Source of the DNA: Candidatus Daviesbacteria bacterium
Lineage (GTDB): Bacteria; Patescibacteriota; Microgenomatia; Daviesbacterales; UBA10151
DNA: 64,000 bases
Assembly: GCA_016186955.1 (NCBI GenBank)
Contig: JACPKP010000003.1
Location: 2,290-66,289, forward strand
Direction of reading: 5' to 3'
The notes under the pieces: generated by a model
The model's input: the letters and a program-made list of their open reading frames with translations, nothing else
Told to the model about the DNA's origin: nothing
Databases searched by the model: none
Made by a program: the position numbers and the translations under genes
Part shown: piece after piece, positions 2,464-48,840 of the stretch
Layout: each line of letters starts with the position of its first letter
Numbering within the stretch: position 1 is the first letter of the stretch

Positions 2464-2602
2464 TGGGAATTTTGTTTTAGAGGTCAGAACTGTTAAAATT
2501 TAAAGTAAGCAGGAACAATGTTACGAGTTTTGCGGTTCGTCTTGCCCTACGAATTCTTGTTGATAGGTTCAGGTGCGAAGCGCGTAAATGTTAATTTTTC
2601 CT

Positions 2603-2678: not shown

Positions 2679-2679
2679 A

Positions 2680-3366: not shown

Positions 3367-3421
3367 GCAAATTTTAAATTTCGAATTTTAAATTAAAAAT
3401 TATTGTTGTACAATAAAAGAT

Positions 3422-19900: not shown

Positions 19901-21937
19901 TCAACGTATGTCTATGTGTTAGGTGGGAATACCGGTAGCGGTGTCATTTCCACAGTCTATAAATCCACCCTAAATTCTACAACAGGTGATTTAGGCGCTT
20001 TCGCCACTACCAATCAGGCACAATTGTCCCAGCCTTTTTGGCGGCATTCCTCTGTTATCTCTGTACTGGGCCCTTCAACTTATTTTTATATTTTGGGTGG
20101 TTGTGATAATAATTCTTGTACTGCTTCGACAGTCCGTTCCACTGTCTATAAATCAGCCCTCAATACTGACCCAATTGTCCAAACCTTTGCCACCACCTCC
20201 CAATCCCAACTGCCCCAGGTAGTTAAAAACTTCTCTGCCAATTTTACAACAATTTTAGGCACAAATTATATTTATGCCATAGGGGGGGACAGTGGGGCCA
20301 GCTCAGGTACAGGTGATGCAGGCACATTTGACACCACTTCCCAGGGGCAACTGCCGCTTGATGTTAATGCCTACAGACCCTTTAGTGTGAATATAGGTGC
20401 ATCTACTTATGTCTATGTAGTTGGTGGATTTTCCGGCAGCCTCAATAATAAATTGTCTACCAACTACAAAGCTACATTAAATAATACAACCGGTGATGCA
20501 GGCACATTTGCCACCACCAGCCAAGCACAACTTCCTACTGCTTTGAGGAATCACGCCTTGATTAGCACAACAGTGGGCATCTCAACTTATGTTTATACAA
20601 TAGGTGGGGAGAACATCTCCACGGTCTATAAATCCACTATTGTTGGGTCCGGCGCTAATGCCGGCGATCTTGGTACATTTGCTACCACTTCTCAGTCTCA
20701 ACTGCCTGAGGCTAGGAAACAATTGCCGGCCGCTTTGGCCGCAATAGGGTCATCTCAGTATGCTTATGTGGTTGGAGGTTATAATGCTAGCGGTACCAAT
20801 AAATCTACAGTATATAAAGTCAGTATAAATAGTTCATCCGGCGATCTTGGTACATTTGATACCACTTCTCAGTCTCAATTACCCCAAGTCTTGGCTGCTC
20901 ACTCACTGATTGTTCAAACTATTGGTTCATCTACTTATCTTTACGCCGTAGGGGGAGAAAATGGCGGTACTAAATACAGCACCAACTACAAAGCTACATT
21001 AAATAATACAACCGGTGATGTAGGCACTTTTGACACCACCAGCCAGGGACAATTACCCCGCTCTCTGACAAGCTCTACCGCTATTAATGTCAGCGTCGGG
21101 AGCTCATCCTATATTTATGTATTAGGAGGGGATCCGGGAGGTCTGGCAGTATCCACTGTTTATAAAACTACTATTAATGGCACAACTGGTGATGCAGGCA
21201 CATTTGCCACCACCAGCCAGGCCCAATTAATCCGTACTAATGCACAAAATACGGTTTTAACATCAACTGTTGGCCCTTCCTCTTATCTCTATTTCATCGG
21301 GGGTTGTTTGTCCACTAATGGTTGTGCAAATAGTGAAGTGCAGTCTACAGTCTACAGATCCATCTTAGGTTCAACCAAAATAGCAGAATCTACTGTTTAC
21401 AAATCTACTGTAGATTCAAGCGCCAATGTGGGGAGTTTTGCCACCACTGCCCAAACCCAGCTCTCCACTGCCCTGCAGTCCCACGGAACTGCTTTTTTCC
21501 AGAACAGCTCACCCTACCTTTATGTTATAGGCGGGTGTGTTTTTGGAGGTACGCCATGTGGCATAGCAGATACCCGGCAGACAATTTATAGGACTTCCAT
21601 TACTTCCTCGACCGGAGATGTGGGGGCATTTTCCTACTCTGCCAACGGGCTGCCCATAGTTTTAAACAAACTTACAACTACAACTGCCACCTTAGGCGCC
21701 ACCACCTACCTGTATATCTCAGGGGGGGCATTGGGGACAACAGACCAGTCCACATTTTACCAGTCCAGGATCTCCAACTCTGAATTTGACACCCAGATCC
21801 AAAATGCCACAGTCGCCAATTCCTGGCTGGTTGTAGATGTATCATCACTCCAGATCCCCGAGAACCTGCTGGGGTTTTTGCCATTAGGATTATTGTTACC
21901 CAAACTGATGAAAAAGTTCCGGAGGCAAAAAGATTAA
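10973..21937 (+). CDS. Giant (3654 aa) multidomain surface protein: IS481-like transposase HTH region, membrane-embedded processive GT2 glycosyltransferase, ~36 tandem Kelch-like beta-propeller repeats, PEP-CTERM-like (PEN-CTERM) sorting tail
   Basis: Single uninterrupted ORF. aa 1-170 contain two transposase-type HTH motifs ('ISRTLLYRWINR','VSRTAFYKWLERY') plus a 'VQNVLKRHSLN' HTH_32-like segment. TM helices follow. The GT2 domain ('VSIHLATYNEKRV...VVIVDDSTEQ...FDADF...RQRMRWAEG...WFRTPKTG') is followed by cellulose-synthase-like C-terminal TMs. An anchor helix 'GKIILASFVIVFILL' precedes a Ser/Thr-rich region and the repeat '...ST(V)YKSTLNSTTGDAGAFATTSQGQLP..(h)SAV(s)T.VGPSTYIYVLGG...'. C-terminus: 'QIPENLLGFLPLGLLLPKLMKKFRRQKD'. 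Confidence 0.75.
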   Translation: MSAKLTAKERTKVIKRALKGENISGLCREYKISRTLLYRWINRCKLAQKKREERQLRPQDRQEMIERVKLGENVAKVCSLYNVSRTAFYKWLERYEQAPEGHKLEALWDKQPKVERYFNQASEEYEEAVLSAVREYPELSSHKLVWALPQVGGKPILSNHGVQNVLKRHSLNTYGLRLAYSKAYYKPTALSRFFAFIQSVLAAVTAQPAQRRNVLVRGSFVFALTIFSLVTVYGLFSLSRLVLGAGGVALSLGLILSLIALGFGMFFFLYSLKYYITIAMVLSFSRRSDEENLKSQNSNLKSASQILNPNHQRKSFLQNIQGTGRDDVIKYQGGLGLKADLSGVILDRQPFVSIHLATYNEKRVLERLLTAATAQEYENYEVVIVDDSTEQESIDILNKWKKHPRVKVIHRESREGYKGGALREALKISSPRTEFVLVFDADFIPYPDTITSFLKYFKLTVGNLETKHSTSNVAAVQGYQWHVLNKSENWITRGVKSEYSGSYVIERSGEELYSGLKQIAGSVYMIRADVLKELGWGTSITEDFQLTLRLYERGYKVVFTPYIQAPAEAVSTIKRLIRQRMRWAEGHSHNIKKMLIPLLTSKNLTWAEKFEVLYLTPYYLQAAFFIFGTLCWFLAEVVFRVTLPFWTSTWGWSLVLTNLFALPLMNLVGLFLEESNEKDYLGLPAFMALSYVVAPFQGYAAIKGFLEKEEGPWFRTPKTGRITDVFTPGKLYKFVFGWLGKTVKHSANPAIGQINRMYSQEQLAEFAAMSEDNVTLSETKGINISFANAQDDRGRIYQTQPNVVVLAISKAVSKLTVNQFSIFIFQFLMNFQWFKRLNSKLKKIAASLALLAPRNDGGRSPHLAVSSSFNTFNYFKSLNSLNHPVPAPNRLVGKIILASFVIVFILLNQAALFNQYTVDLRHMSIKAKEGGPISRKLAAGAPLPIDPTIEQQINITTQEYSTQSITDMPTDNSLGLVRYTAASYTSPTTYFEAVIKNSNSSTTTASLYDSTGAYVAGSAVTATGATYTRVRSAAITLTTGTDYTVRLRSSPGNGAISSGTASIIAARIIVVQATDSNITNTETQVEVGDNETTSKVDLTPLSNPKYFKFDPTKYDAGSITAYFEATLKASNNTPAATSTGPNSPSSCADDGAVGTLTWTNDSNATAQDDQTAVMQGTDNGTSEYEECVGFSFNLAPTDTVAGVLLEADIYSSGTSTRPIIDNSVKLSQAGTITGNDQATTDAWPTSDTDTYTSWGSSSNLWGVSWTPADINDPNFGAGISARKTTTAGNPGTGKIDHVRMTVYYTPAAAAQTATAELYNRTDGLAVTESSVSTSNLTWTRARSSALSTNWDTTNADEYEVRVKTSDTTANASIANAKVVLVQNVAGGIGNVELYHNYINAPESQNSASVGTFSTTNQGQIPLVRMQGSSVINTIGSSTYVYVLGGCNAACSSTTDTSTVYKSTINNVTGDAGVFSTTSQGQLVTENSDNAVVTSSLGGTTYIYEIGGDNGARKSTVYKASINSSGDIGTFATTSQGQMPAILGSISSNSITVGPSSYIYILGGAPATGQSSTVYKSTLNSSNGDAGAFATTSQQQLPIKVRDHTSVSTTVGPSTYIYVVGGESAAFSSAVYKSTIDSSGDVSAVFATTSQGQLPQISSQHYAVLTAVGQSTYLYTMGGSPDGGTTVVSTVYKSTLDSATGDLSTFSTTNQQQLVPLTFGLSANAALVGPSTYLYVLGGYNGSSALSTVYKAPLSNDFDSFGYNNLYNSNDWIGGTFTFYQESTLKQTQAGVTANSRLTPGGIGNVSSTLMPNAANGNFGVFATTSQGQVPEINSNLSSSTAMVNGSTYIYVLGGNNDSANQSTVYKSTVNSTTGDAGAFATTSQGQLPQILEGLQTRSLAVGSSTYIYTLGGYTGTAYKSTVYKSTLKAASDSTNGDAGAFATTSQAQLPLTNGNFGSTILTSGASTYIYVIGGASTASVSYSTNYKALIDPTTGDIGAFATTSQAQLPAAGQRLGVTSAVIGPSSYLYVGGGCSGCGTPVSTFYKATIDPTTGDIGTLATTNQAQLPTALRQFNITSTIVGPSTYLYVFGGCTGGVSCGNQSTVYKSTLNSSNGDAGTFATTSQGQLAQPLIWVGGSGAIASAGPSTYLYVLGGLNTSSVSISTVYKSALQQNPYERQRSGDITSYLNGSLAANAGTFDTTNQAQLPKMFRQHSAVSTQIGNSTYVYVLGAFTDLSSVLSTAYKSTLDNNTGNLSLFNTSNQAQLLQAFRLAATTSLSVGVSTYVYVLGGFTSSANISTVYKSTINSATGDLGTFDTTSQGQVPQALRSHTINSAQIGVSTYIYVLGGVNTGGSDISTIYTSTVNSATGDLGTFDTTSQAQLPRVGSSFASITQSVGPSTYLYVIGIQGNTSVYRSVINSTSGYLGVFDTTSQGQLVQNTTQHSAIATVLGPSTYIYVLGGSSMSTIYRAALNSSTGNINTFTTTSQSQLLNISRENTAIIANTGPSTYIFQLGGFDNGSSTTFSTVYKSVLTEDLTPGNLNVIQTTYQGQLPAALSSHATVVGRDQGVNYIYQLGDNPASTVYKSAIDANGYAGTFATTNQAQLTQTLKNLQAVSASYGGTTYIYTIGGDNGSAITSTVYRANSNGTSGNLTVAFATTSQAQLPQGLQNHQAVIGATSGDNYIYALGGCNLTGFCAASSTQSTVYKANIKVSADAQTFATTSQKQLLKISEAPASVTATMGSSTYVYVLGGYDQGGVINSTVYKTTLNSTTGDAGAFATTSQGQLVVGLQYQSALVSTIGSSTYLYVLGGYNGSDLSTVYKTTLNSTTGDIGAFATTNQGQLVQINESHASVTTAVGPSTYVYVLGGTSDGGTTIFSTVYKSTINSTTGDIGAFATTSQQQLPALREKLASFVAAMGPSTYVYVLGGAEASVKSTNYKATLNASGDIGAFATTSQGQLPNIIYMHSAITSTIGSSTYVYVLGGNTGSGVISTVYKSTLNSTTGDLGAFATTNQAQLSQPFWRHSSVISVLGPSTYFYILGGCDNNSCTASTVRSTVYKSALNTDPIVQTFATTSQSQLPQVVKNFSANFTTILGTNYIYAIGGDSGASSGTGDAGTFDTTSQGQLPLDVNAYRPFSVNIGASTYVYVVGGFSGSLNNKLSTNYKATLNNTTGDAGTFATTSQAQLPTALRNHALISTTVGISTYVYTIGGENISTVYKSTIVGSGANAGDLGTFATTSQSQLPEARKQLPAALAAIGSSQYAYVVGGYNASGTNKSTVYKVSINSSSGDLGTFDTTSQSQLPQVLAAHSLIVQTIGSSTYLYAVGGENGGTKYSTNYKATLNNTTGDVGTFDTTSQGQLPRSLTSSTAINVSVGSSSYIYVLGGDPGGLAVSTVYKTTINGTTGDAGTFATTSQAQLIRTNAQNTVLTSTVGPSSYLYFIGGCLSTNGCANSEVQSTVYRSILGSTKIAESTVYKSTVDSSANVGSFATTAQTQLSTALQSHGTAFFQNSSPYLYVIGGCVFGGTPCGIADTRQTIYRTSITSSTGDVGAFSYSANGLPIVLNKLTTTTATLGATTYLYISGGALGTTDQSTFYQSRISNSEFDTQIQNATVANSWLVVDVSSLQIPENLLGFLPLGLLLPKLMKKFRRQKD
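15190..21790 (+). repeat. Coding tandem array of ~36 Kelch-like ~60-aa repeats (~180 nt period) inside the giant gene
   Basis: Reiterated 'STVYKST(L/I)NSTTGD(A/I/L)G(A/T)FATTSQ(G/A)QLP' plus '...VGPSTY(I/L/V)YVLGG' units, seen directly in the translation. Copies are divergent at the DNA level but some are near-identical (e.g. 19255-19330 vs 19435-19500). Confidence 0.8.
21854..21934 (+). other. C-terminal PEP-CTERM-like sorting signal (PEN motif - TM helix - basic cluster) of the giant protein
   Basis: 'IPEN' + 'LLGFLPLGLLLP' + 'KLMKKFRRQKD' mirrors the tripartite PEP-CTERM architecture (PEP - hydrophobic - Arg/Lys-rich). Confidence 0.6.
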
Positions 21938-23506: not shown

Positions 23507-25561
23507 ATGATACAAACTGTCTTGGCTCTCTCCCAATTCTTTATCAATAACTTCCCTCCGCCAGCTGGCGGATGGTGGTACCCATACTGGTATTTGGGCA
23601 ACCCTTACCATTATCTGATAGGGCCGGTGGTGCCAATAATATTGGCAATTATAAATTTCAAATTTCAAATTTCAAATTTTGGATTTCCAATATATTTAGG
23701 GTTGCTGGGAGTGTCATGGGTGGTTGGAGGAGTGGGGGTGTATCAGCTGGTAGAAAAGCTATCTCAAACCTCAAATCGCAAATCTCAAATCCTTTATGCT
23801 TTACTATTTATGTTCCTGCCCTTCTCGTTGTTTCTTTTGGCTTACTCAAATGGGTTGTATCACTTTGCCTGGGGGTTTTTGCCATGGGTTTTTGTGGTAT
23901 TTTTACGCTTTCTTGTCGGATCTCCCATGTCATTGCGAGACCACAAAGTGGCGAAGCAATCTAATTTAATAAAGATTGCCGCGCTCCCTTCAGTCGCTCG
24001 CAATGACGAAGAAAAAAAGGGCATAAAAATTGCCCTGTTGCTTAGTATTTTGGTATCCTTTGTACTGTTGGTAGATGTTTCGATACTGCTTCCAATGCTG
24101 GTAGGGTTTGTTTGTTTAGGGGTGGTAATCAAGGATATTAAAGGAGTTAAGGGAATTAATGGGGGCGGGGAATATCAGGTTTTTAAAACTTTCTTTGTAT
24201 TATTGTTTGCCCTAAGCCTGGCTACAATCTGGTACACACCCGGGTTTTGGCTGACCCTGTTGCAAAACCCCTCATTTGGTGGGATGCCGCTTGTTAATTT
24301 GGGGAAATTTTTATTCCAGCTGCTTTTGAACCTGGTCCCTATCCTGGCAGCGGTTTGGGTGGTCAAGCTGAGAATGAAAAATTTGTCCCGGACAGCATAC
24401 TTCGGGCTGCTTTTTTTGTCATCATTTCTTTTTCTTACTATAATAAGGTATTTATCTGATCCTGATTTTGTGCAGGACTGGATCGGGTTTTTTATAGAGA
24501 TCCAGTTTGGGTTGGCGATTTTGCTGGGCTCTTTTTTGTCATCCTCGCGTATGCGGGGATCTTTTAGAAGATTGATTCCCGCTTTCGCGGGAATGACAGT
24601 ACTATTGGTATTTATTGTAAAAGGTTGGATGGGTGGCGAAAATGTAAAATATCAATCCAAGATTGTATCCATGCTGAAAAATGTGCCCAAAGACGAGCGG
24701 GTGTTTCTTTCAGGCACAAGCGTTTTTTGGGCTAACCAATACCTTGATATTATACAGGTGAGGGGAGGGGTAGACCAGGCATCAATCCATCCTTACTGGG
24801 CTGATGGGGCATACCAGATTAGGGAAGGGGAAAATAGTGAGTTATCTTTAAACTGGCTTAGGGCTTTAGGCGTAAGCTGGATTTTAGTGCATAGTGGAGG
24901 GTCAGATGAGCCTTACAGGGATTTTAAGCGCCCTGAGAAGTTTACCCAAATTTGTCATCCCCGACTTGATCGGGGATCCATTTTGGAAAAGGATCCTCGC
25001 ATTCGCGAGGATGACACAATATGTAAGATTGTTAAGGGAATTAAGGGGGATACTCTATATAAGGTAGGCGGGGCAAGCATTGCCAGGGTGGCTGATAAAT
25101 CAATATTGGAGGTTAAAAAACCAAAAAACGGCGCAGATGCCCAAACATTGGCAAAATATGTCAACACCTTCAAAATACACCCCGGGGGTTCACCCCCGGG
25201 GTGGGAAAACAGGCCTGGCTTTACGAACGTAATTGAGGTAGATGCTGATTTGGGAAAGGATGAGGTGATCTCTTTGGCGATTGCCTATGACAGGGGATGG
25301 CAAGTTCAACAGTTCCACCCGGGGGGTGGAACTGGAGGAGTGAGGCTGGTCAAAGATAATCTGGGTAATATAGTTTTGATACCTGGTGCAGTCGGCCGGA
25401 TCAGCTTGAGCTTGGTTTATCAGACCCCGGTTTGGGAGAGGGCAGCGCCTGTTTTGATATCTTTGGTGCTTCTTTTTATATTGGTAAATTATGATAAATC
25501 CTATCCCGGGATGTCCCGAATCCTGGCTAAGGTGGGGCATGGATTAGGGGAGGAAGAATAA
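23507..25561 (+). CDS. large polytopic membrane protein (possible GT-C-like) carrying multiple in-frame mini-element insertions
   Basis: 684 aa, many TM helices ('WWYPYWYLGNPYHY' N-terminal region). In-frame copies of heptamer repeats (ISNFKFQISNFGF at 23640-23700), a GTCAT-family half element (23966-24006), two hairpin MITEs (24537-24597, 24954-25015) and caccccgggggtg palindromes (25178-25204, ~25318-25335). Confidence 0.5.
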   Translation: MIQTVLALSQFFINNFPPPAGGWWYPYWYLGNPYHYLIGPVVPIILAIINFKFQISNFGFPIYLGLLGVSWVVGGVGVYQLVEKLSQTSNRKSQILYALLFMFLPFSLFLLAYSNGLYHFAWGFLPWVFVVFLRFLVGSPMSLRDHKVAKQSNLIKIAALPSVARNDEEKKGIKIALLLSILVSFVLLVDVSILLPMLVGFVCLGVVIKDIKGVKGINGGGEYQVFKTFFVLLFALSLATIWYTPGFWLTLLQNPSFGGMPLVNLGKFLFQLLLNLVPILAAVWVVKLRMKNLSRTAYFGLLFLSSFLFLTIIRYLSDPDFVQDWIGFFIEIQFGLAILLGSFLSSSRMRGSFRRLIPAFAGMTVLLVFIVKGWMGGENVKYQSKIVSMLKNVPKDERVFLSGTSVFWANQYLDIIQVRGGVDQASIHPYWADGAYQIREGENSELSLNWLRALGVSWILVHSGGSDEPYRDFKRPEKFTQICHPRLDRGSILEKDPRIREDDTICKIVKGIKGDTLYKVGGASIARVADKSILEVKKPKNGADAQTLAKYVNTFKIHPGGSPPGWENRPGFTNVIEVDADLGKDEVISLAIAYDRGWQVQQFHPGGGTGGVRLVKDNLGNIVLIPGAVGRISLSLVYQTPVWERAAPVLISLVLLFILVNYDKSYPGMSRILAKVGHGLGEEE
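24537..24597. repeat. Hairpin MITE, GTCAT...ATGAC family (in-frame in CDS)
   Basis: 'gtcatcctcgcgtatgcggggatc-ttttagaa-gattgattcccgctttcgcgggaatgac'. Terminal inverted repeats plus the internal hairpin cccgc-tttc-gcggg. Encodes 'SSRMRGSFRRLIPAFAGMT'. Confidence 0.6.
24954..25015. repeat. Hairpin MITE, GTCAT...ATGAC family (in-frame in CDS)
   Basis: 'gtcatccccgacttgatcggggatcc-attttggaaaa-ggatcctcgcattcgcgaggatgac'. TIR gtcatcc/ggatgac and two internal hairpins. Confidence 0.6.
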
Positions 25562-28372: not shown

Positions 28373-28437
28373 CATCTTCAGTTTAGGTCTTTTTCTGTGA
28401 TAAACTCGGAGTTAGCATCTCAAATCTTAAATCTCAA

Positions 28438-30549
28438 ATGTCAAATCTATTCAAATCACTTAAAGATACCAAAATTCAACTGCTTATCATCCTCGCTCTG
28501 ACTTTTTTGGTTTATGCCAATTCATTGCCAAATAAGCTGCTTTGGGATGACCATTTATTTTTAGAACAGTGGCCGCAGGTACAAAGTTTTAAGAACCTGG
28601 GAGAGGTCCTTAAAGGCTCTGCGCCTCCTTCACAAGGCAAGATCTACAGGCCCTTGCGGGGGGTGTTTTATATGATTGATTACCGGCTCTTTGGGGCAAA
28701 CCCATTTGGGTATAGGGTCCAGGCTGTTTTAATCCACCTTATCAGCACACTTTTAGTCTATTTTATAGTTAGAGAAATTTTGACAAAACATTTCACCCCG
28801 GGGGTGAAAAATTTGAGATTACACCCCCGGGGTGGGGGATATTTACCTTTCATCACAGCCCTTCTCTTTGGCCTGCATCCCATCCACACCGAAACCATTG
28901 ATTATATCTCAACCAGTATGGAAAGTTTTGGGACGGTGTTTTTCTTTTTGAGCTTCTGGCTGTATTTATTGGCTCAAAAGTACACCCTGAAAGTACAAAA
29001 CCGGAGTGAGAATGCATGGTTGTATTTAGCTTCCGTAACCAGCGCTGCCCTGGCTTTTTTTACCTATGAGATGACGCTGACTTTGCCCATCCTGATAGTG
29101 CTGTATGAGCTAACCTTGGGTCAATTTCAAATTTCTAATTTCAAATTTCTAATTAAGATATTGCCTTACTTTGTGGCAGCTATAATCTTTGTGGTTATCA
29201 GGTTCAGCGTGCTTGGTTTAATCTCTAGGACAGATTACCTGGGTTATAGCTTTTACCTGACCCAGCTTACCATGGTGAAGGTTTTTGTGCGCTACATTGG
29301 GCTTTTACTTTTTCCGATTAACCAGACTGCCATCCACAACCTGGTGGGGGATTTTCCCTCCTCAATGATCCCTTATGATAAACTTGAACCTGTTTTAAAC
29401 CAGACCATCTTTGATAAAGATGTCTTGCTTGCTATATCAGTGGTACTGGGGCTGATTTTGGCAGCAGTTAAATATATCAGAAAATATCCAATTGTATCAT
29501 TTTCAATTTTATGGTTTTTCATAAGCCTGTTGCCTGTCTCTTATATCATTCCGCACGGCGGAGCCATGGCAGAAAAGTACCTGTATATCCCATCATTTGG
29601 ATTTGTACTAATAATCGGCTTCCTTATAGTTCAAAGTGCAAAACTTAAAGTGCAAAATTATAATTTAAAGCTAAAAAGTTCTAAGTTTTACACTATAGTT
29701 TTTACCTTTACACTTTTACTTCTAATTTCCTACTCCGTACTAACCATTCAAAGAAATACTGTTTGGAAGGATGACATTTCGCTTTTTTCCGACGTAGTTA
29801 AAAAATCACCGGAAAACCTGTTGGCAAACTACAATTTGGGCATCTGGTTTGGCAACTTTAACAAGCTTGAGGAAGCCGCAGCCCATTACCAGATAGCAAT
29901 TGATAAAGCCCCTGATTTTTTGGAGGCAAGGTATAACCTTGGGAATATTTACGCACGGGTTGCGCAATTTGAAAATGCTACAGCGCAGTACACGTATATT
30001 TTAAATATTAACCCCGGCCATAAACAAAGCCAAAATATTTTAAATAACATGGTTCTTTTAAAAACAGCATCTCCTTCAGCCCTGCTTAATTCCCCAAACC
30101 TGATGGTAGGTTTTACAACTAAAAATGGGTTGCAGTTTTCTTTCCCTGCCTTCTGGTCTAAGGGTGAGTTAAGGAAGGCAGTTTCAGAAAAAGAGACCAA
30201 AACAGGAAAAACTACACCTGTTAGCGATGAGGCTGTCGGCACCAGCCTTGAGTCTCCTGACGGGTTCAAAATCCAAATTATTGAAGACAGTTTGGGGAAA
30301 AAGAATATGGAGGAATATATAAATGGCCAAAAAGAGACCCATGGTAAGCTGGTAAACCAGGGGTTGGCCCAAATCCCGAATGCAGAGGGTGCTTTTGTTA
30401 AGGTTTGGGAAGGGGATGGTGTAACAAAACTCCAGTTCTTTCTTTTTATAAAGAAAAAAGTAATCCAGATAATAGCCTATCCGGCCGGTTTACCTTCAAT
30501 GCCGATTTTTGATGCCTTTTTAGGGTCTTTGAAGCTACATGACACATAA
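28438..30549 (+). CDS. TMTC-like (DUF1736) GT-C glycosyltransferase with C-terminal TPR repeats and conserved C-terminal 'YPA' module (paralog A)
   Basis: N-terminal 'LLIILALTFLVYANSLPNKLLWDDHLFLEQW' (loop-1 acidic motif of GT-C O-mannosyltransferase-like enzymes) and ~11 TM helices. TPRs ('YNLGIWFGNFNKLEEAAAHYQIAIDKAPDF...'). C-terminal 'KLQFFLFIKKKVIQIIAYPAGLPSM'. In-frame palindromic element at 28794-28834 and heptamer repeat at 29118-29150. Confidence 0.65.
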   Translation: MSNLFKSLKDTKIQLLIILALTFLVYANSLPNKLLWDDHLFLEQWPQVQSFKNLGEVLKGSAPPSQGKIYRPLRGVFYMIDYRLFGANPFGYRVQAVLIHLISTLLVYFIVREILTKHFTPGVKNLRLHPRGGGYLPFITALLFGLHPIHTETIDYISTSMESFGTVFFFLSFWLYLLAQKYTLKVQNRSENAWLYLASVTSAALAFFTYEMTLTLPILIVLYELTLGQFQISNFKFLIKILPYFVAAIIFVVIRFSVLGLISRTDYLGYSFYLTQLTMVKVFVRYIGLLLFPINQTAIHNLVGDFPSSMIPYDKLEPVLNQTIFDKDVLLAISVVLGLILAAVKYIRKYPIVSFSILWFFISLLPVSYIIPHGGAMAEKYLYIPSFGFVLIIGFLIVQSAKLKVQNYNLKLKSSKFYTIVFTFTLLLLISYSVLTIQRNTVWKDDISLFSDVVKKSPENLLANYNLGIWFGNFNKLEEAAAHYQIAIDKAPDFLEARYNLGNIYARVAQFENATAQYTYILNINPGHKQSQNILNNMVLLKTASPSALLNSPNLMVGFTTKNGLQFSFPAFWSKGELRKAVSEKETKTGKTTPVSDEAVGTSLESPDGFKIQIIEDSLGKKNMEEYINGQKETHGKLVNQGLAQIPNAEGAFVKVWEGDGVTKLQFFLFIKKKVIQIIAYPAGLPSMPIFDAFLGSLKLHDT
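28794..28834. repeat. GC-rich palindromic mini-element (caccccgggggtg - N15 - cacccccggggtg), in-frame
   Basis: Encodes 'TPGVKNLRLHPRGG'. Homologous copies at 44436-44476 and 53125-53165, with partial copies at 39030-39050 and 25178-25204. Confidence 0.65.
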
Positions 30550-32664: not shown

Positions 32665-34813
32665 ATGAAGTATTTTCGGTCGACGAAAGTTCAGATATTA
32701 ATAATAATTTTAGCTACTTTTTTAGCTTATTTAAACATCTTCCAAAATGGGTTTGTGGTAGATGATGAGGATTTCATAGTTAACTGGAAAGAAAAGCAGG
32801 AGATCACAAACGTTCCCCTGATGTTGAAGGGTAATAATCCACCTAAGTTTGGAGGGATATATAGGCCTATTAGAGGAGTATTGTACACATTTTATGATCA
32901 AATATTCGGTGCTAACCCTTTTGGTTACCACCTCCACTCAATCCTGGTCCACCTAGGGGTAACTGTTTTGGTTTACTTTATAACCAGGCAGCTTATACAG
33001 GGTTTAGGGTCTAGGGGTTGGGGTTTAGGGTTGGAAGTTAAAACTAAAAAAAATTCAACTATACCCTATACCCTACCCCAAAGGGGTAAGCTCCGCTTAT
33101 ACCCTATACCCTTTATTTCTGCCCTGCTTTTTGGCCTGCACCCTATCCATACTGACCGGGGTCTTTTTTATGCTTGCAGCGCTCCATCTTTATTTAATTG
33201 AGAAAAAAATGTATTCATATATTTTTGCAATTCTTGCCTTCTTTAGCTATGAACCTGCGTTAGTTTTAATACCCCTGCTGGTTACTTACGACGTGTTAAT
33301 TAAAAAAATACCATTAAGGGAAACGCTTAGTAACATTAAAAAATATTTGCCGTATCTGCTGGCAGGGTTAAGCTTTATTTTTATCAGGCTGGTATTAATT
33401 GGGCGGAACCCTGCGCATTTTAAATATTTAGCAGACAGCTTTTACCATACCCAGCTTATAATGACGAAGGTTTTTGTCAAATATTTAAGCCTGCTTATAG
33501 CCCCGTTTAATTTATCCTTAAACCACATCATAGACCCTGACTTTGAAACTTTTAACCCGCCTGTTAATGATTTTAAGTCATTTACCTCCCAGTCAATCCT
33601 TGACCCCTGGGTTATTACCTCAATTTTAATCATAGCCACCCTGATATTTATAACAATAAAATTTAGAAATAAGCTGCCTCTGGTTTCATTTGGGCTGGCC
33701 TGGATTTTTATATCTTTCCTGCCTTATGCCAATTTAGTTCCACAGCCTACCCCGCTTGCAGAAAGATACCTATATATAGCATCATTTGGCTTTTGTTTAT
33801 TACTGGGATACCTTTTAGTGGAAATTTCAAATTTCAAATTTCAAATTTCAAATTATTTTCTTTTTACTCTTTTCTTTTTACTCTTTTCTTTTTACTTCTA
33901 CCAGACTTACCAAAGGAACAAAGACTGGAAGGAGAAAGGCAGCCTTTGGCAGAGAGCTTTAGTTTATTACCCAAACAGCGCTTTCGCAAGTTATATTATG
34001 GCTAGGGTGAACCAGGAAAAAGGCAACCTGCCGGAAGCTATAAAATTTTACAACCAGACTGCAAATCTCCAACCAGGCTATGTAACTGCATATCTGGAAT
34101 TGGGTAGGCTTTACCACAAAAACAACCAGCTGGATAAGGCGTTAGAGGTACTAGTCAAAGCTACACAGCTTGAGCTTGAGCCGATAGATGAAAACAGGTT
34201 GGATGCATCTATCGGAGAGCTGGCAAAAGTTTACACTGAGATAGGATTTATCTACCGGGAGAAAAAAAAGTTTAAAGAGGCCTACACTAACTTTGAACAG
34301 GCGCTATCGTTATATTCAGGATACTTGCCTGCAAAGGTAAGCATTGAAACTCTGTTAAAAGATCATCCTGAGCTAAACGAACTGGCTAAAATTTACTCAA
34401 TGGAGAATTGGACAGAATATCATTCAAAATCCGGGCTGTCTTTTCAGTACCCCAAAATATGGGATATTAGTGAAAATGATGGGCAAATTCATATTTTTAC
34501 AAAAGATAAAAGCGCTAATATTGAGATAATTGTTGATGGGTTTTCTACATCAAAAGAAGAATATCTTAAAAATCAGACAGATATGCATGGAATGTTGGTA
34601 AACCAACGGTATACCAGGCTGCCTAATGCTGATAATGTTTATGCCAAGATTTGGAACGATCCTACGCCGGAAAGCACCGGAAGTGGAGTCCCGAAGCTGC
34701 AATTTTATGTTTTCAAACCCAAAAATGTCATTAAGTTATTCGTTTACCCAGCTGAAATTTCCTTGAAGGTAGTTTTAGACAGTCTAATGCGGAGCTTAAA
34801 GTTAACAATTTAA
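32665..34813 (+). pseudogene. TMTC-like GT-C/TPR glycosyltransferase paralog split by +1 frameshift next to a ~170-bp palindromic element (fragments 32665-33201 and 33131-34813)
   Basis: The N-terminal fragment ends right after the element-encoded '...LYPIPFISALLFGLHPIHT'. The C-terminal fragment resumes at 'TGVFFMLAALHLYL', so ~15 aa of the conserved core (ETIDYISTSMESFG in paralog A) are missing and the frame changes. The C-terminal part retains TPRs and the 'KLQFYVFKPKNVIKLFVYPAE' module. Confidence 0.5.
32985..33152. repeat. ~170-bp G/T-rich palindromic insertion element (copy 1)
   Basis: 'cagcttatacagggtttagggtctaggggttggggtttagggttggaagttaaaactaaaaaaaattcaactataccctataccctaccccaaaggggtaagctccgcttataccctataccc...ccatact'. 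Nearly identical to 35163-35330. Arms 'ggggttggggtttagggt' / 'accctataccctacccc' are partly complementary. Confidence 0.7.
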
Positions 34814-34829: not shown

Positions 34830-36912
34830 ATGGAGACAAAATTCAAATTTCTGAAACAAACCAAAATTCAGGTTTTAATCATTGTTTTGCTAACCCTTTT
34901 GGCTTACTCCAACATCTTTCAGAATGAATTTGCTGTTGATGACCTTTATCTGATCGTCAAATGGGAGAGGATACATAACTTATCAATTATCCCGGAGCTT
35001 TTTGTAAAGGATACGTTGGAAACAGGCTATACAGGTTACAGGCCTCTGCGTACAACAATCATCGCTATTCTTTACAATATTTTCAGGGAAAATACATTCG
35101 GCTATCATTTGTATTCAATTCTGGTGCATCTTAGTTCAACTCTTTTAGTCTATTTTTTAGCCAGACAGCTTATACAGGGTTTAGGGTTTAGGGGTTGGGG
35201 TTTAGGGTTGGAAGTTAAAACTAAAAAAAATTCAACTATACCCTATACCCTACCCCAAAGGGGTAAGCTCCGCTTATACCCTATACCCTTTATTTCTGCC
35301 CTGCTTTTTGGCCTGCACCCTATCCATACTTAAGCCAAAACTGATGCTTTTGTCCTCAATCCTTCTCGGGGTATTGGCATATTTGACTTTTGAGATCACC
35401 TACATCCTACCGCTGTTGATTTTTGCCGCTGAAATAATTTTATTCCCCGGCAAAATTAAATCCCGGTTAATCAAAGCTTTCAAAATAACACTTCCTTTTA
35501 CCCTGATTGTAGCAATAATTTTTCTCATCAGGTATCAGGTATTATCGCTAGGGGAATTTAAGGTAAATTATTTGGCGGGCAGTTTTTACTTAACTCAGGT
35601 ATTGATGCTGAAAGTACTACTCAAATATCTTCTTCTGCTGATTTATCCTGTGAATTTATCGTTAAACCACGTTATCTCCGGGAATTTTGAAACTTTTCGG
35701 GTGAACATCAATAGTTTTGATTGGTTTATTCATCAATCTATCCTAGAACCACAACCAATACTTGCATTGTTAATTGTTATATCACTAACGCTTTTGGTAT
35801 TTTGGTGCAGAAAGAAAAATCCCCTGGTATCGTTTTCAATAGCATGGTTGTTTATCAGCTTTTTACCTTTTTTTAACCTCATACCCCAGGCAACCGCTCT
35901 TTCGGAAAGGTATCTATATGTTGCCTCGTTTGGGTTCATACTTTTTTTATGCTGCGTATTATTTTATTTACCGAAAAAGTTGGGCTTTTTAATATTGATA
36001 TTGCTGGTAATTTCTTATGGAACCTTAACTTACCGTAGAAATTTTGATTGGAAATATGCATCATCGATTTGGGAGGCGATGTTGAGGGCCTATCCTAAAA
36101 GCGCCCTGGCAAATTATTTCGTAGGAACAATCTTTGAAGAGCGCCGTGAAAATGACGAAGCTATTTACTACTACCAGAGATCTTTAGAACTAAATCCCAA
36201 TATGGATTATGCCTATAATAGCCTGGCCTACCTTTATTTTAAACAAGGCAATTCGGCTCTGGCAAAAAATTTACTTCTACAAGAGTTGAAGATCCAAAAT
36301 AAGATATTAGATCGGAATCAAACGGATGTATTGTTAAATTTATCTGAAAGTTATGCCTTGTTAAGCAAAATAGCGCTAAAAGAAAAAAAATTTGATGAGG
36401 CTTTTGAATATTCTCAAAAAGCAATAACAGTAGATGCCGATAACCAAGATGCCTTTTTAGCGCAGGATTTGATATTGGCTGAGAAGCCGGAGTTCAAAAA
36501 AAATGCAGCCCTTTTCGACCCTAAAGGATGGCAACAGTTTACAAATAAAAATTATGCCTTTGCTTATCCTATAAATTGGTCAGCTGAAGAGAAAGAGGGC
36601 AAAATAGTTTTACATCCGTTTAAAAGACAATATGAAATAACTATAGAGAAAATAGATGGTTTTACAAATTCAGACAAAGATTTGTTTTTGAAATCACAAA
36701 ATCAATCTTTTGGAACCTTGGTTAAAGAAGAATCTGCCAAAGTGCCTGATACGGAGTGGGCATATGCCAGGATATGGAATGACCACGAACAACCCAGGCT
36801 TGAGTTTTATATCAGTAAAAAGGGGATAATCTTCAGGGTAATCGCCTTTCCCTCAACGTTCGCTTTAAAAGAAATATTTGATAAGGTCATACAATCCATA
36901 CAGGTATTTTGA
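34830..36912 (+). pseudogene. TMTC-like GT-C/TPR glycosyltransferase paralog split at the same element (fragments 34830-35333 and 35308-36912)
   Basis: The N-fragment terminates with a TAA immediately after the element ('HPIHT*'). The C-fragment resumes ~50 aa further into the conserved membrane core ('LSSILLGVLAYLTFEITYILPL'). It retains TPRs and the 'RLEFYISKKGIIFRVIAFPST' C-terminal module. Confidence 0.5.
35163..35330. repeat. ~170-bp G/T-rich palindromic insertion element (copy 2)
   Basis: Near-identical to 32985-33152 (single-nucleotide differences only). Confidence 0.7.
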
Positions 36913-36918: not shown

Positions 36919-38676
36919 ATGAAAATTTTAGGGATTAATCCCAATCTGCTTCATGACAGCGGGGCAGCTTTAGTTTTAAACGATTGTTTGGCTGCAGCTG
37001 TAAACGAAGAAAGATTTACCAGAGTAAAGCAGCAGCAAGGAGTGCCGGAAAGGTCTGTTTTTGAAGTGTTAAAGATCGCAAATCTGACCCCGGCCCAGAT
37101 TGACCGCATCCATATTGCCGGATACCCGCCTGTAAAAAAACTCTTAGCGCTCGGTAAAACTTTCTTTAGGCTTTTGCTGTTTTTGAAATTCGATCTGGTT
37201 AAAATTTCTTTTTCAAAAGACAAATTCCAGTCTGTTATTTCAAGAAGGATGGCGAAAGGGAAAGGGGAGAGTATGAATATGTTTGTTGAAGCTTTCAAAG
37301 ACATCTGGGACATGGAAAGATTGCTAAATAGGTTAAGAAAGGAAGGGTTTTCGGGAAAGATTTGTTATATCCCGCACCATCTTTGCCACCTCTACGCAGC
37401 TTATTCAGCGTCAGGCTTTTGGGATAAATGCCTGGTGGTGAATATTGAGGGTAGTTCATTTGAATACACAGCTAATGCGTATATAGGGGACAAGGGTATT
37501 TTAAAGGAGGTTGTTTCCACCCCTGACCCTAACAGCGCCGGCCATTTTTATGCAGCTTTTACCGAGCTTTTGGGTTTACGCCCAGGTTTCGACGAGGGTA
37601 AAGTTACAGGATTGTCGGCTTGGGGAAGGGTGGGGAATCTCGGAGAGGAATTTAAAAATCTTTATGAGGTTGCAGTGAAAATGCTCAAACTGGAGAATTT
37701 GAAGCTTAAAATATCGCCAGATGTGTTTTTATACCCATTCTTTTATAGTAGTACCGGCCGGTTGCCAAAATTACTGGAAGGTTTTAAAAAGGAAGAGATA
37801 GCTTGGGTTGCCCAAAAAAGGCTTGAAGATGTAATATGTCCGTTTGTTAAACAACTTTTGGACCAAACCGGCTGCAAACAAATAATACTGACGGGTGGAG
37901 TTGCTGCCAACGTCAGGCTTAACCAGCAGGTAGCGGAGTTGCCAGGGGTTAATGAGATATTTGTATATCCTGGAATGGGCGATTTTGGAAACGCCCACGG
38001 CGCAGCCATTGCCCCGAAAAAAAACGGCCGCATTAAACAGACTAAATTAAATGACCTCTATCTAGGCCCCGAATTTTCTGAAGAGGAAATGGAAAACCTG
38101 CTTTTTGCGAATAAATTAAAATTTAAGAAAATTACAAACGGCCTTGAAGATATAATAGCTATGGAACTTGCGCAGGGGAAAATAATTTGCATATTCAGGG
38201 GCAGGATGGAATACGGGCCAAGGGCATTAGGCAACCGTTCCATCATAGCAGCAACCGAGATCCGGCTCGCCGGAAAATTGAATAAAGCCCTCAACAGGGA
38301 TGAGTTTATGCCGTTTGCCCCTTTAGTGGTTTACCACCTGGGTAAAAAATGTTTTGAAAATATCAACAAAGCAGGATATTGTGCGCAGTTTATGACGATC
38401 AGTTTTAGGGCAAAAGACTATTTTAAAAAATTATGCCCTGCTGCCGTGCACATAGACAATACTTCGAGGCCGCAGCTGCTGCAGAAAAAAACAAACCCGT
38501 TTCTTTACAGAGTCCTTACGCAATACTATAAGCGTACAAAAATTCCCGGCGTTATAAATACTTCTTTTAATATGCACAATGAACCGATCGTCTGTTCACC
38601 GCAAGATGCGATAGGTACATTCCTAAAGTCAAAACTTGATATATTGGTTATGGGAAATTTCCTTGTGCGTAAATGA
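36919..38676 (+). CDS. NodU/CmcH-family carbamoyltransferase
   Basis: 'MKILGINPNLLHDSGAALV...EERFTRVK' (Carbam_trans_N) and a C-terminal domain with 'GRMEYGPRALGNRSI' (Carbam_trans_C signature). Confidence 0.75.
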   Translation: MKILGINPNLLHDSGAALVLNDCLAAAVNEERFTRVKQQQGVPERSVFEVLKIANLTPAQIDRIHIAGYPPVKKLLALGKTFFRLLLFLKFDLVKISFSKDKFQSVISRRMAKGKGESMNMFVEAFKDIWDMERLLNRLRKEGFSGKICYIPHHLCHLYAAYSASGFWDKCLVVNIEGSSFEYTANAYIGDKGILKEVVSTPDPNSAGHFYAAFTELLGLRPGFDEGKVTGLSAWGRVGNLGEEFKNLYEVAVKMLKLENLKLKISPDVFLYPFFYSSTGRLPKLLEGFKKEEIAWVAQKRLEDVICPFVKQLLDQTGCKQIILTGGVAANVRLNQQVAELPGVNEIFVYPGMGDFGNAHGAAIAPKKNGRIKQTKLNDLYLGPEFSEEEMENLLFANKLKFKKITNGLEDIIAMELAQGKIICIFRGRMEYGPRALGNRSIIAATEIRLAGKLNKALNRDEFMPFAPLVVYHLGKKCFENINKAGYCAQFMTISFRAKDYFKKLCPAAVHIDNTSRPQLLQKKTNPFLYRVLTQYYKRTKIPGVINTSFNMHNEPIVCSPQDAIGTFLKSKLDILVMGNFLVRK

Positions 38677-40484
38677 AAAAATTAAATTCTTTAAAATTAC
38701 AACTTTTAATTTTCGGGGTGCTTATTGCAGTTTTTTACGGCAACACCCTGTTTAACGACTTTGTCCATGATGATATCTGGCAGGTGGCTGAAAATAAATA
38801 TGTCAAAAACGTCTCCAACATCCCGGCAATTTTTACCAGCTGTATAGCAGAGGATATTTTGGGGGGATGCAGGAACAAGGGTTTTTATTACCGTCCGTTG
38901 CAGTCAGTGGTTTATGCAATTGTTTATCAGGTATCCTCTAAGCCTTGGTTGTTCCACCTTGCAAACCTTGTTTATCTGCTGATCATTAGCCTGCTTGTCT
39001 TCCATCTTTTCAGCCTCATTATTTCCAAGACCACCCCCGGGGTGGTCTTGGGTTTGGTTGGGACGGTTTTGTTTTTAGCCCATCCCATTAATTCAGAAGT
39101 AATAAATTGGGTATCAGCCACTCCTGAGCTTTTGACAACAATTTTTATGATGTTGGCAATCATCCTTTATGACAAATTCAGAAAAAAAAGCAAAATTTAT
39201 TATTTACTCTTTTCCGCCCTGTCCTATTTTTTGGCCCTTCTGGCTAAAGAAACAGCCCTTTTTCTGCTGCCTTTACTGCCTCTTTATGAATTTCTTTTCA
39301 GTAAACCTCAAAAAGGACAGGGTTCGTTTAAAAGGTTTTCTTTTATATCCTGGCATCTGGGGGCAGTGGGGCTTTATTTAAGCTTGCGGGAAGAGGCCTT
39401 GGGCAGGGTCATATATAAATATGCAGGTTATTATTCAATGGATACATACACACAGGTTATCAATGCGCTGACACTTTTACCTAAATACCTGTGGAAGCTT
39501 ATCTATCCATTGCCTTTGAGTTTTCAACCCCAGATTTTACCTGTTTCTTCATTTGGGTTGATGGGTTGGTTGGGAGTTTTTATTTGTGCAGCAGCGGTTT
39601 TGGCATCATTCTTTTTATGGAAGAAAAAGAAAAAAGGGATGCTTTTTGGACTGGCTCTGATATTACTGCCCCTTTTCCCGATCCTTGTCTTTATTAATAA
39701 ACTAGGCGAGAACCTGTTTTCAGAAAGATACCTGTTTTTATCAAGTATTGGATTCAGTTTAATAGCAGTGGAGATATGTAGAAGGTTGCTGTCCCATACA
39801 AGTGGACGATCGTCTCATGTTTTGTCCAAAATACCGGTAGCGGTATTGCTGGTATTCTTAGGGGTTGGTTGGTGGGTGGTTTTTAACAGGAATAAAGATT
39901 GGAAAGACAATAGTACTTCATATCAGAGTATGATCAGGGTTAACCCAAACCATACCAAGGCCCATTTCCAACTTGGAGAATATTATCTGGGCATTGGTGA
40001 ATTTAGTAAGGCGCAAGAGGAGCTCAAAAGGGTATTAAGCCTAGATCCCAACTATCCGGGAGCCCAAAAAAGGTTGGATATGAGTGTGCAAAGGTACAAT
40101 GCGAAAACCGGTTTGTCATTTTACCAGCCGGCAGGTTTTAAGGTGGTGGAAGATGAGCATGAGTTAAGTCTTTATGAGGCACAAAATAGATTAAACATTA
40201 GGATAAGTTTGGAAAAAGTAAAGGGATCAAAAGAGGAATATTTATCAGGACAAACTGAAAAATTTGGTGTTTTGAATAAAGAAGGTTTGGGGTCTGTCCC
40301 AAATTTTGATCAAACCGTTGTAAGGGTCTGGCAAGATCCCGCACCAGACGGTGCAGGACAAGTTGCCAAACTTCAATTCTTTCTTTTCAAAGGTGATCAG
40401 GTAGTAAAAATTTTAGTTTATCCGGCAGACTCACCTTTGATGGAACAGTTTAATCTGGTTTTAGGATCAATCAGAATCCACTAA
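38673..40484 (+). CDS. TMTC-like GT-C glycosyltransferase with TPRs and conserved C-terminal module (paralog F, canonical 'FVHDD' type)
   Basis: 'LLIFGVLIAVFYGNTLFNDFVHDDIWQVAENKYV', many TMs, TPRs ('AHFQLGEYYLGIGEFSKAQEELKRVLSLDPNYPGA'). C-terminal 'KLQFFLFKGDQVVKILVYPADSPLMEQF'. Partial caccccgggggtg element at ~39030-39050 ('TPGVV'). Confidence 0.65.
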   Translation: MKKLNSLKLQLLIFGVLIAVFYGNTLFNDFVHDDIWQVAENKYVKNVSNIPAIFTSCIAEDILGGCRNKGFYYRPLQSVVYAIVYQVSSKPWLFHLANLVYLLIISLLVFHLFSLIISKTTPGVVLGLVGTVLFLAHPINSEVINWVSATPELLTTIFMMLAIILYDKFRKKSKIYYLLFSALSYFLALLAKETALFLLPLLPLYEFLFSKPQKGQGSFKRFSFISWHLGAVGLYLSLREEALGRVIYKYAGYYSMDTYTQVINALTLLPKYLWKLIYPLPLSFQPQILPVSSFGLMGWLGVFICAAAVLASFFLWKKKKKGMLFGLALILLPLFPILVFINKLGENLFSERYLFLSSIGFSLIAVEICRRLLSHTSGRSSHVLSKIPVAVLLVFLGVGWWVVFNRNKDWKDNSTSYQSMIRVNPNHTKAHFQLGEYYLGIGEFSKAQEELKRVLSLDPNYPGAQKRLDMSVQRYNAKTGLSFYQPAGFKVVEDEHELSLYEAQNRLNIRISLEKVKGSKEEYLSGQTEKFGVLNKEGLGSVPNFDQTVVRVWQDPAPDGAGQVAKLQFFLFKGDQVVKILVYPADSPLMEQFNLVLGSIRIH

Positions 40485-48733: not shown

Positions 48734-48840
48734 ATCTCAAATGTTAAATGTCAAATCTACAACTTAAAGCTAAAATCTTGAAAAAATAGGATATTTGAGA
48801 TAAAGTTTTGAGATTTTCGATTTGAGTTTTGAGATTTTCC
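48725..48840. repeat. Inverted arrays of AT-rich heptamers (aaatNtc ... gagattt) forming a long imperfect hairpin between genes
   Basis: 'tctcaaatgttaaatgtcaaatctacaac...gatatttgagataaagttttgagattttcgatttgagttttgagattttc'. The left arm heptamers are on the + strand and the right arm is their complement. Confidence 0.6.

Follow-up and report, generated by a model that had tools for sequence, protein, structure and literature searches.

How does one short turn of a membrane protein come to carry, in paralog after paralog, different hairpin-forming repeats that are all read in frame? The question is raised by a 64-kb stretch of contig JACPKP010000003.1 (hereafter the window, meaning the whole 64,000 nt that were analyzed), which is a glycosylation gene cluster of a Candidatus Daviesbacteria genome (Microgenomates, within the Candidate Phyla Radiation, CPR). 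The window includes at least 10 tandem paralogs of a GT-C membrane glycosyltransferase that bears tetratricopeptide repeats (TPR), and 8 of 10 have a hairpin in the turn between transmembrane helices 2 and 3 (the TM2-TM3 turn). The explanation that we favor, as a probable one, is that hairpin repeats of selfish or slippage origin are abundant here and have been retained where they are tolerated. The paralogs, in window coordinates, are as follows.

28438-30549, + strand: paralog A, TPR-containing GT-C glycosyltransferase (open reading frame, ORF, with TPR Pfam matches)
32665-34813: paralog C
34830-36912: paralog D
38673-40484: paralog F
40489-42468: paralog G
43852-45822: paralog I
45834-47471: paralog J
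52498-54783: paralog P
54780-56627: paralog Q
start near 63440: paralog R

Paralog A has 302 homologs, mainly from Microgenomates; the homologs are annotated TPR proteins of Ca. Daviesbacteria, Curtissbacteria, and other Microgenomates, and PF13231 (PMT_2) is recorded for several of them. A 322,873-bp Daviesbacteria contig (locus tags HYW46_…) encodes proteins identical to several of the window paralogs, the A protein was found again on an independent Logan contig, and SRR12113424 has an identical A locus. A sequence search of the PDB with the host protein returned no relatives, and a fold search was needed to find its kin. The AlphaFold model of paralog J (83 sequences; pLDDT 93, pTM 0.92) was matched by Foldseek to ArnT 5F15 (E 5.6e-4, TM 0.39), PglB, and STT3 over the membrane domain, and to TPR proteins over the tail. 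The host protein fits the GT-C type with TPR (PMT_2/ArnT/TMTC-like): it combines a multi-span GT-C membrane domain with C-terminal TPR, and an acidic pair, DD, is invariant across homologs in the loop that follows TM1, the first external one. That loop is extracytoplasmic in the solved GT-C structures (ArnT, PglB, PMT), and therefore the turn after TM2 should be cytoplasmic. The K/R-rich consensus of the TM2-TM3 turn agrees with this placement under the positive-inside rule.

The turn is occupied in eight paralogs, as listed here.

28794-28834, + strand: paralog A, 41-nt doublet of a 13-nt palindrome, REPIN-like hairpin (minimum free energy, MFE, -31 kcal/mol; z -5.1)
39024-39052, + strand: paralog F, single palindrome of the A family, hairpin with a 13-bp stem (TTPGVV; z -3.5)
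40846-40949, + strand: paralog G, 104-nt GC-rich hairpin
46182-46285, + strand: paralog J, 104-nt GC-rich hairpin (MFE -57, z -5.6)
52876-52979, + strand: paralog P, 104-nt GC-rich hairpin
44215-44299, + strand: paralog I, AT-rich heptamer hairpin, (AGTATGA)n, AAAAAGTTG, (AATACTN)n (z -3.9)
32985-33152, + strand: paralog C, block of (AGGGTTT)n, A-rich center, and (ATACCCT)n, plus native TM3 codons
35163-35330, + strand: paralog D, the same block with one mismatch in a 115-nt BLAST comparison; stop codon at 35331-35333

The original prediction had placed inserts in seven paralogs (A, C, D, G, I, J, and P). All seven carry them, at coordinates that we verified by sequence, and F adds an eighth member with its single palindrome; the turn of paralog Q is empty, and that of R has a short extension that forms no hairpin. 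Both protein and profile hidden Markov model alignments place all of the inserts between the same two profile positions, the end of TM2 (LVYFI.R..) and TM3 (PFITALLFGLHPIHTE), as predicted, and nonhomologous positions are not indicated in either alignment. The elements had been counted as four unrelated ones, but the insert of I and the block of C and D share an architecture of tandem heptamer arms, so the inserts form three classes: the 41-nt palindrome doublet, the 104-nt GC-rich hairpin, and the heptamer-array hairpins.

The doublet of paralog A has the structure CACCCCGGGGGTG-N15-CACCCCCGGGGTG, in which the palindromes are mutually reverse complementary across a 15-nt spacer, and it is translated as TPGVKNLRLHPRG. 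The 13-nt palindrome, CACCCCSGGGGTG, has 10 copies in the window compared with 0.1 expected, and all 10 are inside ORFs. Doublets are also found in the next cytoplasmic loop of paralogs I and P (loop 2, listed below) and in an unrelated membrane protein. Relative to the consensus of the copies in I, P, and o1 (the syntenic ortholog of A in the related assembly L084), the A copy has 0 of 26 palindrome positions changed and 4 of 15 spacer positions changed. The spacer variants follow the loop, with the KNLRL type in loop 1 (A and the homolog P0025) and the KKMQL type in loop 2 (I, P, and P0122, the ortholog of P in L087). Paralog A and o1, which are 60% identical overall and 76% identical over the core columns of the membrane domain, both have a doublet in the turn, but of different subtypes (C/G vs. 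T/A), CACCCCSGGGGTG in one and CACCTCSGAGGTG in the other. The change from CACCCCSGGGGTG to CACCTCSGAGGTG comprises four coordinated, pair-preserving substitutions, and the two doublets are in different reading frames, at different distances from the flanking codons, and within flanks that cannot be aligned. The palindrome thus appears, from these comparisons, to comprise two subfamilies. An interpretation of the variant as specific to one genome was withdrawn, as GCA_964522265.1 has both the T/A and the C/G types. Different proteins read the doublet in one or the other of its two open frames (TPGV…HPRG and HLGGEKNAVTPPRW), and the peptide itself is therefore unlikely to be under selection.

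Every pair of the GC-rich copies in G, J, and P is identical at 100 of 104 positions, yet the 150-nt flanks on each side are only 59-66% identical, and identity falls within a few bases of the element ends (J and P have four differences in the 16 nt to the left and four in the entire 104 nt). The ends are complementary (GTTGC…GCAAC), and the element is 60% GC in a context of 33-40% GC. The three hosts are non-sister paralogs with 41-44% amino-acid identity. P0122, at 82% nucleotide identity to P, shares the loop-2 doublet at 41 of 41 positions but lacks the GC-rich element and has 33 nt of unrelated sequence in its place. Another homolog, P0036, has a diverged relative of the GC-rich element, and its closest relative in the genome of the window, P0034 (66% identity), has an ordinary turn. 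Five copies of the element are known. A scan for its core in a collection of genome contigs (the source genome not included) yielded one unrelated archaeal match, and a protein-database search with four translated frames of the element gave no match, probably owing to composition filtering. By eye, no direct repeat indicative of a target-site duplication flanks the three GC-rich copies or the doublets, and no conserved target word was seen at the insert junctions. The original designation of the element as a miniature inverted-repeat transposable element (MITE) is accordingly not established, given that neither a target-site duplication nor a parent insertion sequence (IS) was found.

The heptamer-array hairpins are built differently, with a 5' arm of three to five tandem heptamers, an A-rich center, and a 3' arm of complementary heptamers. 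The hairpin of paralog I runs into native ATA-CCT-TTC (IPF) codons. The blocks of C and D, which are about 99% identical, comprise about 120 nt of insert and 48 nt of native TM3 coding sequence (IPFISALLFGLHPIHT); the full C element folds with z of -1.6 and the 80-nt core shared by C and D with z of about -5. Relatives have further arms of this kind (AGTATAC / ATACTNA in L085, GGTTCAC / GTGAACN in L086, and TAAGTAT / ATACATA in L087). The arrays merge into native flanking codons (GAA-TTA-GTA-T, ATA-CCY-TT), which suggests, as the origin of the heptamer hairpins, local growth through slippage with inverted duplication and not transposition. Among the microsatellites of the window, heptamer arrays predominate (32 of 82 rows of Tandem Repeats Finder, TRF, output vs. 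0-1 in shuffles), occurring at 32999, 44217, 44260, 29123, 33822, 53795, and elsewhere. More broadly, heptanucleotide arrays (AAATTTC, ATCTCAA/AAATSTC, and others) are present across 22000-64000 both in coding loops (FKFQISNFKF) and in spacers, for example at 23653-23679, 28417-28448, 29123-29154, 33822-33854, 48732-48837, and 53795-53854, and one overlaps the start codon of paralog A. The spacer between a methyltransferase gene and the next gene (48720-48840) is itself a heptamer hairpin, (AAATSTC)n … (TTTGAGA)n, so the heptamer-hairpin type is not limited to coding loops.

The prediction that the elements preserve the reading frame was correct to the extent that the frame is open across every insert, but the genes of C and D are broken 48 nt downstream from it. 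Each is split into two overlapping ORFs after HPIHT, at the right end of the shared block (33131-33201 and 35308-35333), by a 35-nt deletion with frameshift in C and by a stop codon and a missing helix in D; both breaks are outside the heptamer arrays. Because the syntenic genes in L084 are intact, C and D are either recent pseudogenes, split genes, or the product of an assembly error. A simple misassembly swap was rejected, as exchange of the 3' parts of C and D restores neither frame. The independent Logan contig L001 ends within the C/D repeat. The L084 counterparts do not have the C/D hairpin: o2, the counterpart of C, has a decayed palindrome remnant, and o3, the counterpart of D, has a GC-rich element and (ACTACTC)3.

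What was the state of the turn before these inserts? We compared, at the DNA level, 109 homolog loops, most of them belonging to more distant relatives; the window, related loci, and metagenome contigs supplied the sequences. The turn is exactly 11 residues long in 59 of the 109, and large inserts are nearly limited to the window and its close relatives. Because the 11-residue turn is found outside the lineage and large inserts are nearly limited to it, the insert-free turn is, judging by this comparison, ancestral, and the possibility that insert-free paralogs simply deleted an ancestral segment is contradicted. The turn has taken up inserts repeatedly, as the near-identical GC-rich copies within divergent flanks of non-sister paralogs also indicate. 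Gains, replacements, and decay at the turn are frequent relative to protein divergence, because ortholog and syntenic pairs differ in their insert (P/P0122, P0036/P0034, A/o1, C/o2, and D/o3). About a quarter of the 120 closest proteins have an enlarged turn, and many of these enlargements are translated recognizable repeats or further heptamer hairpins, with peptides such as SFPRKRESR, IPAKAGIQ, ARSDSDEAI…FARNDK…LAMT, RNL…RDFS…QNDK, and NFKFQI.

The TM2-TM3 turn is not alone in accepting inserts. In an alignment of 126 proteins, inserts of at least 10 residues in the membrane domain are found at four K/R-rich turns (core positions 116, 169, 211/214, and 385), in 29, 10, 15, and 16 sequences, respectively, the TM2-TM3 turn being the first of these; removal of duplicate entries changes the counts to roughly 27, 9, 14, and 14. 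Elsewhere in the membrane domain such inserts are confined to isolated sequences, three of which have one in the first external loop, at core positions 62 and 83, and a fourth at position 329; conserved external loops are otherwise free of them. On these counts the TM2-TM3 turn is a hotspot in that it has inserts about twice as often as the other three permissive turns. Several of the four share repeat-derived peptides (IPAKAGIQ, ARNDK, SLRGAKRRSNL, FKFQI, and TPGV..HPRG). In the model of paralog J, no low-confidence stretch is larger than the insert (residues ~120-150; means of 49-67 over 10-residue blocks), with a second dip in confidence (75-80) at another loop (~231-250). The insert is thus predicted to be a disordered extra loop, and both the model confidence and the position of inserts in K/R-rich turns place it at an exposed, dispensable part of the protein.

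The same or similar repeats are also found outside the turn, including at the following sites.

44436-44476, + strand: doublet in the next cytoplasmic loop (after TM4) of paralog I
53124-53164, + strand: doublet in the next cytoplasmic loop of paralog P, 41/41 identical in the L087 ortholog
41832-41905, + strand: GTCATCC…GGGAATGAC hairpin in the fourth cytoplasmic loop of paralog G (…RFRGNDK)
23507-25561, + strand: unrelated membrane protein of 684 aa, with at least five in-frame hairpin repeats within 23925-25330

The hairpin in the fourth loop of G indicates that other loops also take up repeats; hairpins with GTCAT ends have at least five copies in the window. The repeats of ORF 23507-25561, which has no Pfam match, are near 23931, 24521, and 24941 (23931-24010, 24537-24600, and 24950-25020), with palindromes at 25178-25203 and 25316-25328 and an AAATTTC array in addition. 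A folding scan of the window found its strongest hairpins in this ORF and in a giant ORF (at 13291), both with z of -5 or below, and further ones in the fourth loop of G, the loop-2 doublets, and the intergenic heptamer hairpin (~48720-48840); the folding z of the elements is -3.5 to -8 overall. The housekeeping gene radA (6162-7550) also has an insert, within 6504-6600, which adds about 24 residues in frame (…KKKIATSSDGHRSPRNDIGG…) downstream from the Walker A region. This insert (near 6530-6575) is a half-copy of the GATTGC…CTCGCAATGAC repeat, found also at 13501 and 23975, and has no significant folding of its own.

The turn inserts of A, F, G, I, J, and P fold as RNA with z of -3.5 to -5.6, and the ORFs stay open through every element. 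The inserts of I and of C/D are each read in the sole stop-free frame of the six, which fits read-through and argues against removal from the mRNA, so the inserts are presumably translated. Could a native hairpin at this site be the target of insertion, or a functional requirement? In 66 insert-free loops, no such hairpin was detected (z of -0.27 vs. -0.12 in controls, p = 0.33), and a native mini-hairpin as target or functional requirement is unsupported there. Intragenic terminators were rejected too: the hairpin of F is the best terminator-like site in 19 kb, but such sites show no significant excess (24 vs. 17.1 ± 3.6). Searches of Rfam returned only two tRNAs at the gathering threshold and nothing relevant to the J element at an E-value threshold, and no known RNA family fits the inserts.

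Under the favored explanation, the genome would be peppered with several families of short hairpin repeats (the CACCCCSGGGGTG doublet, the 104-nt GC-rich element, the GTCAT…ATGAC-ended hairpins, and the heptamer-arm hairpins), some mobile in the manner of REPINs or Rickettsia palindromic elements (RPEs) and others grown in situ from heptamer slippage, arising genome-wide. Selection would purge the repeats that break genes, and the survivors in coding sequence would be those that happen to be open in frame and to fall in dispensable regions, which in this protein family would be the four short K/R-rich cytoplasmic turns. The TM2-TM3 turn may be the most tolerant of these or the most often struck, and at least 10 paralogs with the same turn would multiply the chances, so that it could be occupied repeatedly and independently by different repeats. 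The surviving repeats would be translated as a disordered extra loop, and occasional gene conversion between paralogs would spread inserts, as exemplified by the C/D block, by a block of ~75 nt shared by C and I, and by adjacent paralogs on L085. In C (33856-33935) and I (45215-45290), the ~75-nt block is near-identical, and the last TM helix, FTLFFLLFSFYFYQTYQRNKDWK, is encoded there by a 14-nt unit in perfect tandem repetition (TTTTCTTTTTACTC x2.9); this helix seems to be built from a tandem repeat and shared by conversion. In L085 (GCA_964608755.1), the adjacent paralogs at 1270-3360 and 3394-3918 have an identical heptamer-hairpin insert within flanks that are identical for at least 70 codons, paralleling C and D.

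The original prediction had left the choice between an exceptionally permissive loop and a selected function, and the first fits better, given repeats in three other cytoplasmic loops and in unrelated genes, and no native hairpin. Nonetheless, several points weigh against tolerance as the whole account. The GC-rich copies share one insertion nucleotide, one orientation, and one frame in all three of their hosts (G, J, and P), and diverged relatives are in the same turn in two other assemblies (L002 and o3 of L084), which is more site fidelity than random insertion followed by filtering predicts. Compensatory changes keep the hairpins (the four coordinated substitutions of the o1 doublet and three compensatory pairs in the L002 copy), and two genomes that share 82% identity have the loop-2 doublet in 100% identical form, which points to a constraint on the nucleic acid beyond mere tolerance. 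In addition, "abundant everywhere" rests on 64 kb and a few related contigs, and the source is a metagenome-assembled genome, in which the C/D junction may reflect misassembly. Given the shared insertion point of the GC-rich element and the compensatory changes, some targeting, or some constraint at the nucleic-acid level, may be at work.

The fidelity of the GC-rich copies is what would be expected if that element, and perhaps the doublet, were a mobile hairpin homing to the conserved coding DNA of the turn (…TTTATAAC.AGG.AAT.AGT.TAT, at its end) in paralog after paralog. Such targeting would also account for the sharp drop in identity at the element ends in hosts that are not sisters, for the empty ortholog of P, and for doublet sub-variants that follow loop position. 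However, the start of the insert varies among the element classes from 4 to 20 nt past the conserved Arg codon, and so there is no common site; the junctions have neither the duplication nor the target word that might be expected, there is no transposase among the window ORFs scanned against Pfam, the doublet is also in other loops and another gene, and the GC-rich copies are only five. We therefore consider targeted insertion unlikely. It is rather improbable, in our judgment, that the turn is a true homing site of the GC-rich family (and possibly of the doublets), with in-frame copying from paralog to paralog and hairpins kept by selection on the nucleic acid, or that the heptamer hairpins are slippage switches that diversify surface glycosylation.

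A selected function of a hairpin or loop after TM2, with unrelated hairpins recruited convergently, would make sense of a hairpin in 8 of 10 paralogs, of stems preserved by compensatory changes, of an A copy altered in its spacer and not in its palindromes, of the full conservation of the 41-nt doublet against an 82% background, of the rank of the F hairpin as a terminator-like site, and of heptamer units that are not multiples of three and far exceed their number in shuffled sequence. The function could be a translational pause for membrane insertion, mRNA stability or attenuation, a protein-binding palindrome, or a phase-variation switch in surface glycosylation genes. Yet most homologs are insert-free and give no hairpin signal at the site, and paralog Q has no insert; the same repeats are in three other loops, in RadA, and in other genes; close orthologs exchange one insert type for another, or have a short non-hairpin loop or none; terminator-like sites are not significantly enriched; and the frame breaks of C and D are outside the heptamer arrays. 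This we regard as quite improbable. Least probable of all is an insert that predates the paralog duplications and was then differentially lost or replaced, the survivors being homogenized by gene conversion confined to the element. Conversion between paralogs is clear (the 168-nt C/D block includes native flank, and the C/I block and the adjacent L085 paralogs are further cases), and GC-rich relatives occupy the same loop in three assemblies, but the 11-residue loop is the norm outside the lineage, the pairs P/P0122 and P0036/P0034 differ in presence, an insert of 60% GC in its 33-40% GC context should decay if old, and three element classes in one loop are left unexplained.

The closest precedent is in Rickettsia, in which palindromic elements (RPEs) were reportedly described by Ogata et al. 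in 2000. The original prediction had drawn this comparison, which holds as an analogy of mechanism (short palindromic repeats, in frame, in a permissive loop), and by that analogy the inserts look like the CPR counterpart of RPEs rather than a new kind of system. In both cases there are multicopy short palindromic repeats, several families in one small genome, that are in frame, leave genes open, and occupy noncritical or surface parts of proteins. The case here differs in its lineage (CPR/Microgenomates), in the repeated strikes on one turn of a tandem paralog family, and in heptamer hairpins apparently grown in situ. RPEs are summarized in PMC3733652, which also catalogues intragenic repetitive extragenic palindromes (REPs), likewise among the closest parallels. 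The functional features of RPEs (multicopy palindrome, in frame, dispensable region) are all found here, the likeness being at the level of functional class. The doublet and the GC-rich element are without the terminal CGTC that tags RPE-4/6; repeats of the GTCATTGCGAG type have a CGTCAT end on one strand, which is a lead only.

REP/REPIN doublets, said to be mobilized by RAYT transposases (Bertels and Rainey, in 2011, are reportedly the source), resemble the A-type element, which consists of two inverted short palindromes with a short spacer that form one hairpin and has coordinated sub-variants (C/G and T/A) at several loci. Here, however, the element is intragenic rather than extragenic and the palindrome is only 13 nt. 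REPs are defined by a terminal GTAG (or CGTC) tag (PMC3733652). That tag is absent from CACCCCSGGGGTG and its flanks, and no RAYT (Y1 transposase of the IS200/IS605 type) is among the window ORFs scanned against Pfam; REP/RAYT membership fails on the extragenic location and on the tag.

In yeast mitochondrial DNA, the GC clusters are an organellar palindromic repeat. Palindromic repeats are also known from Volvox organelles (PMC2670323), and the coding palindromes of Nematomorpha mitochondria have arms that both encode conserved protein segments (PMC6649704). As here, these are GC-rich hairpins in AT-rich genomes or in-frame coding positions, with inverted repeats tolerated in membrane-protein genes; they differ in being organellar and of other sequence and scale, and the Nematomorpha arms are conserved protein, whereas here the product is additional, disordered loop sequence. 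MITEs inserted in bacterial genes (Nezha, Correia/NEMIS, RUP) are reviewed in PMC10969869. They too are small, nonautonomous, hairpin-forming repeats able to extend or interrupt ORFs, but here terminal inverted repeats with a target-site duplication were not seen and there is no IS in the window, and MITE membership fails on the target-site duplication. Simple-sequence contingency loci are found in glycosyltransferase genes of Neisseria, Haemophilus, and Campylobacter. The likeness to these is in intragenic tandem repeats, whose unit length is not divisible by three, in multi-paralog genes of surface glycosylation. The differences are that the arrays here are paired into hairpins, that the frame breaks of C and D are outside of them, and that they are not known to vary in length. 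Full-text literature searches found nothing relevant on the diagnostic peptide strings, on in-frame palindromic repeats of CPR, or on MITEs of Patescibacteria. We conclude that this is a known kind of phenomenon in a new lineage, with an unusual concentration on the turn of one paralog family, and that the heptamer-array hairpins are possibly a new sub-type.

A few other features of the region should be mentioned. The giant ORF (10973-21937) is a single reading frame of 3654 aa with helix-turn-helix domains of IS630/IS3-type transposases at residues 1-170, a part that, on inspection of the translation by eye, looks like a family-2 glycosyltransferase, some 40 repeats of ~58 residues each (period of 171-180 nt), and two in-frame hairpins (13291 and 13501). 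Upstream of the syntenic glycosyltransferase cluster, L084 has two 23S_rRNA_IVP (Avd-like) genes (862-2391), with no counterpart in the window; these may be accessory genes of a diversity-generating retroelement. Involvement of such an element in the inserts seems unlikely, since no relationship of template and variable repeat was seen and the inserts are hairpins, not mutagenized repeats. Between two tRNA genes, a 176-aa ORF (1933-2463) has a PaaX central / Cas2-like domain, and no CRISPR array was seen nearby.

A tiny CPR genome, then, tolerates dozens of intragenic hairpin repeats. The turn offers a well-replicated case of selfish or slippage-born DNA turned into protein, in which the paralogs act as replicates of one another and the timing of insertion is bracketed by an ortholog pair. 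It also maps where a GT-C glycosyltransferase can accommodate 10-60 extra residues, namely in cytoplasmic turns only, and it explains odd peptides in CPR database entries (…ARNDK, IPAKAGIQ, SFPRKRESR, FKFQISNF…), which is a warning for annotators and for those who predict structures. If it is true that the GC-rich element targets the turn, it would represent a new kind of mobile element, specific to a gene family and tolerated by the protein.

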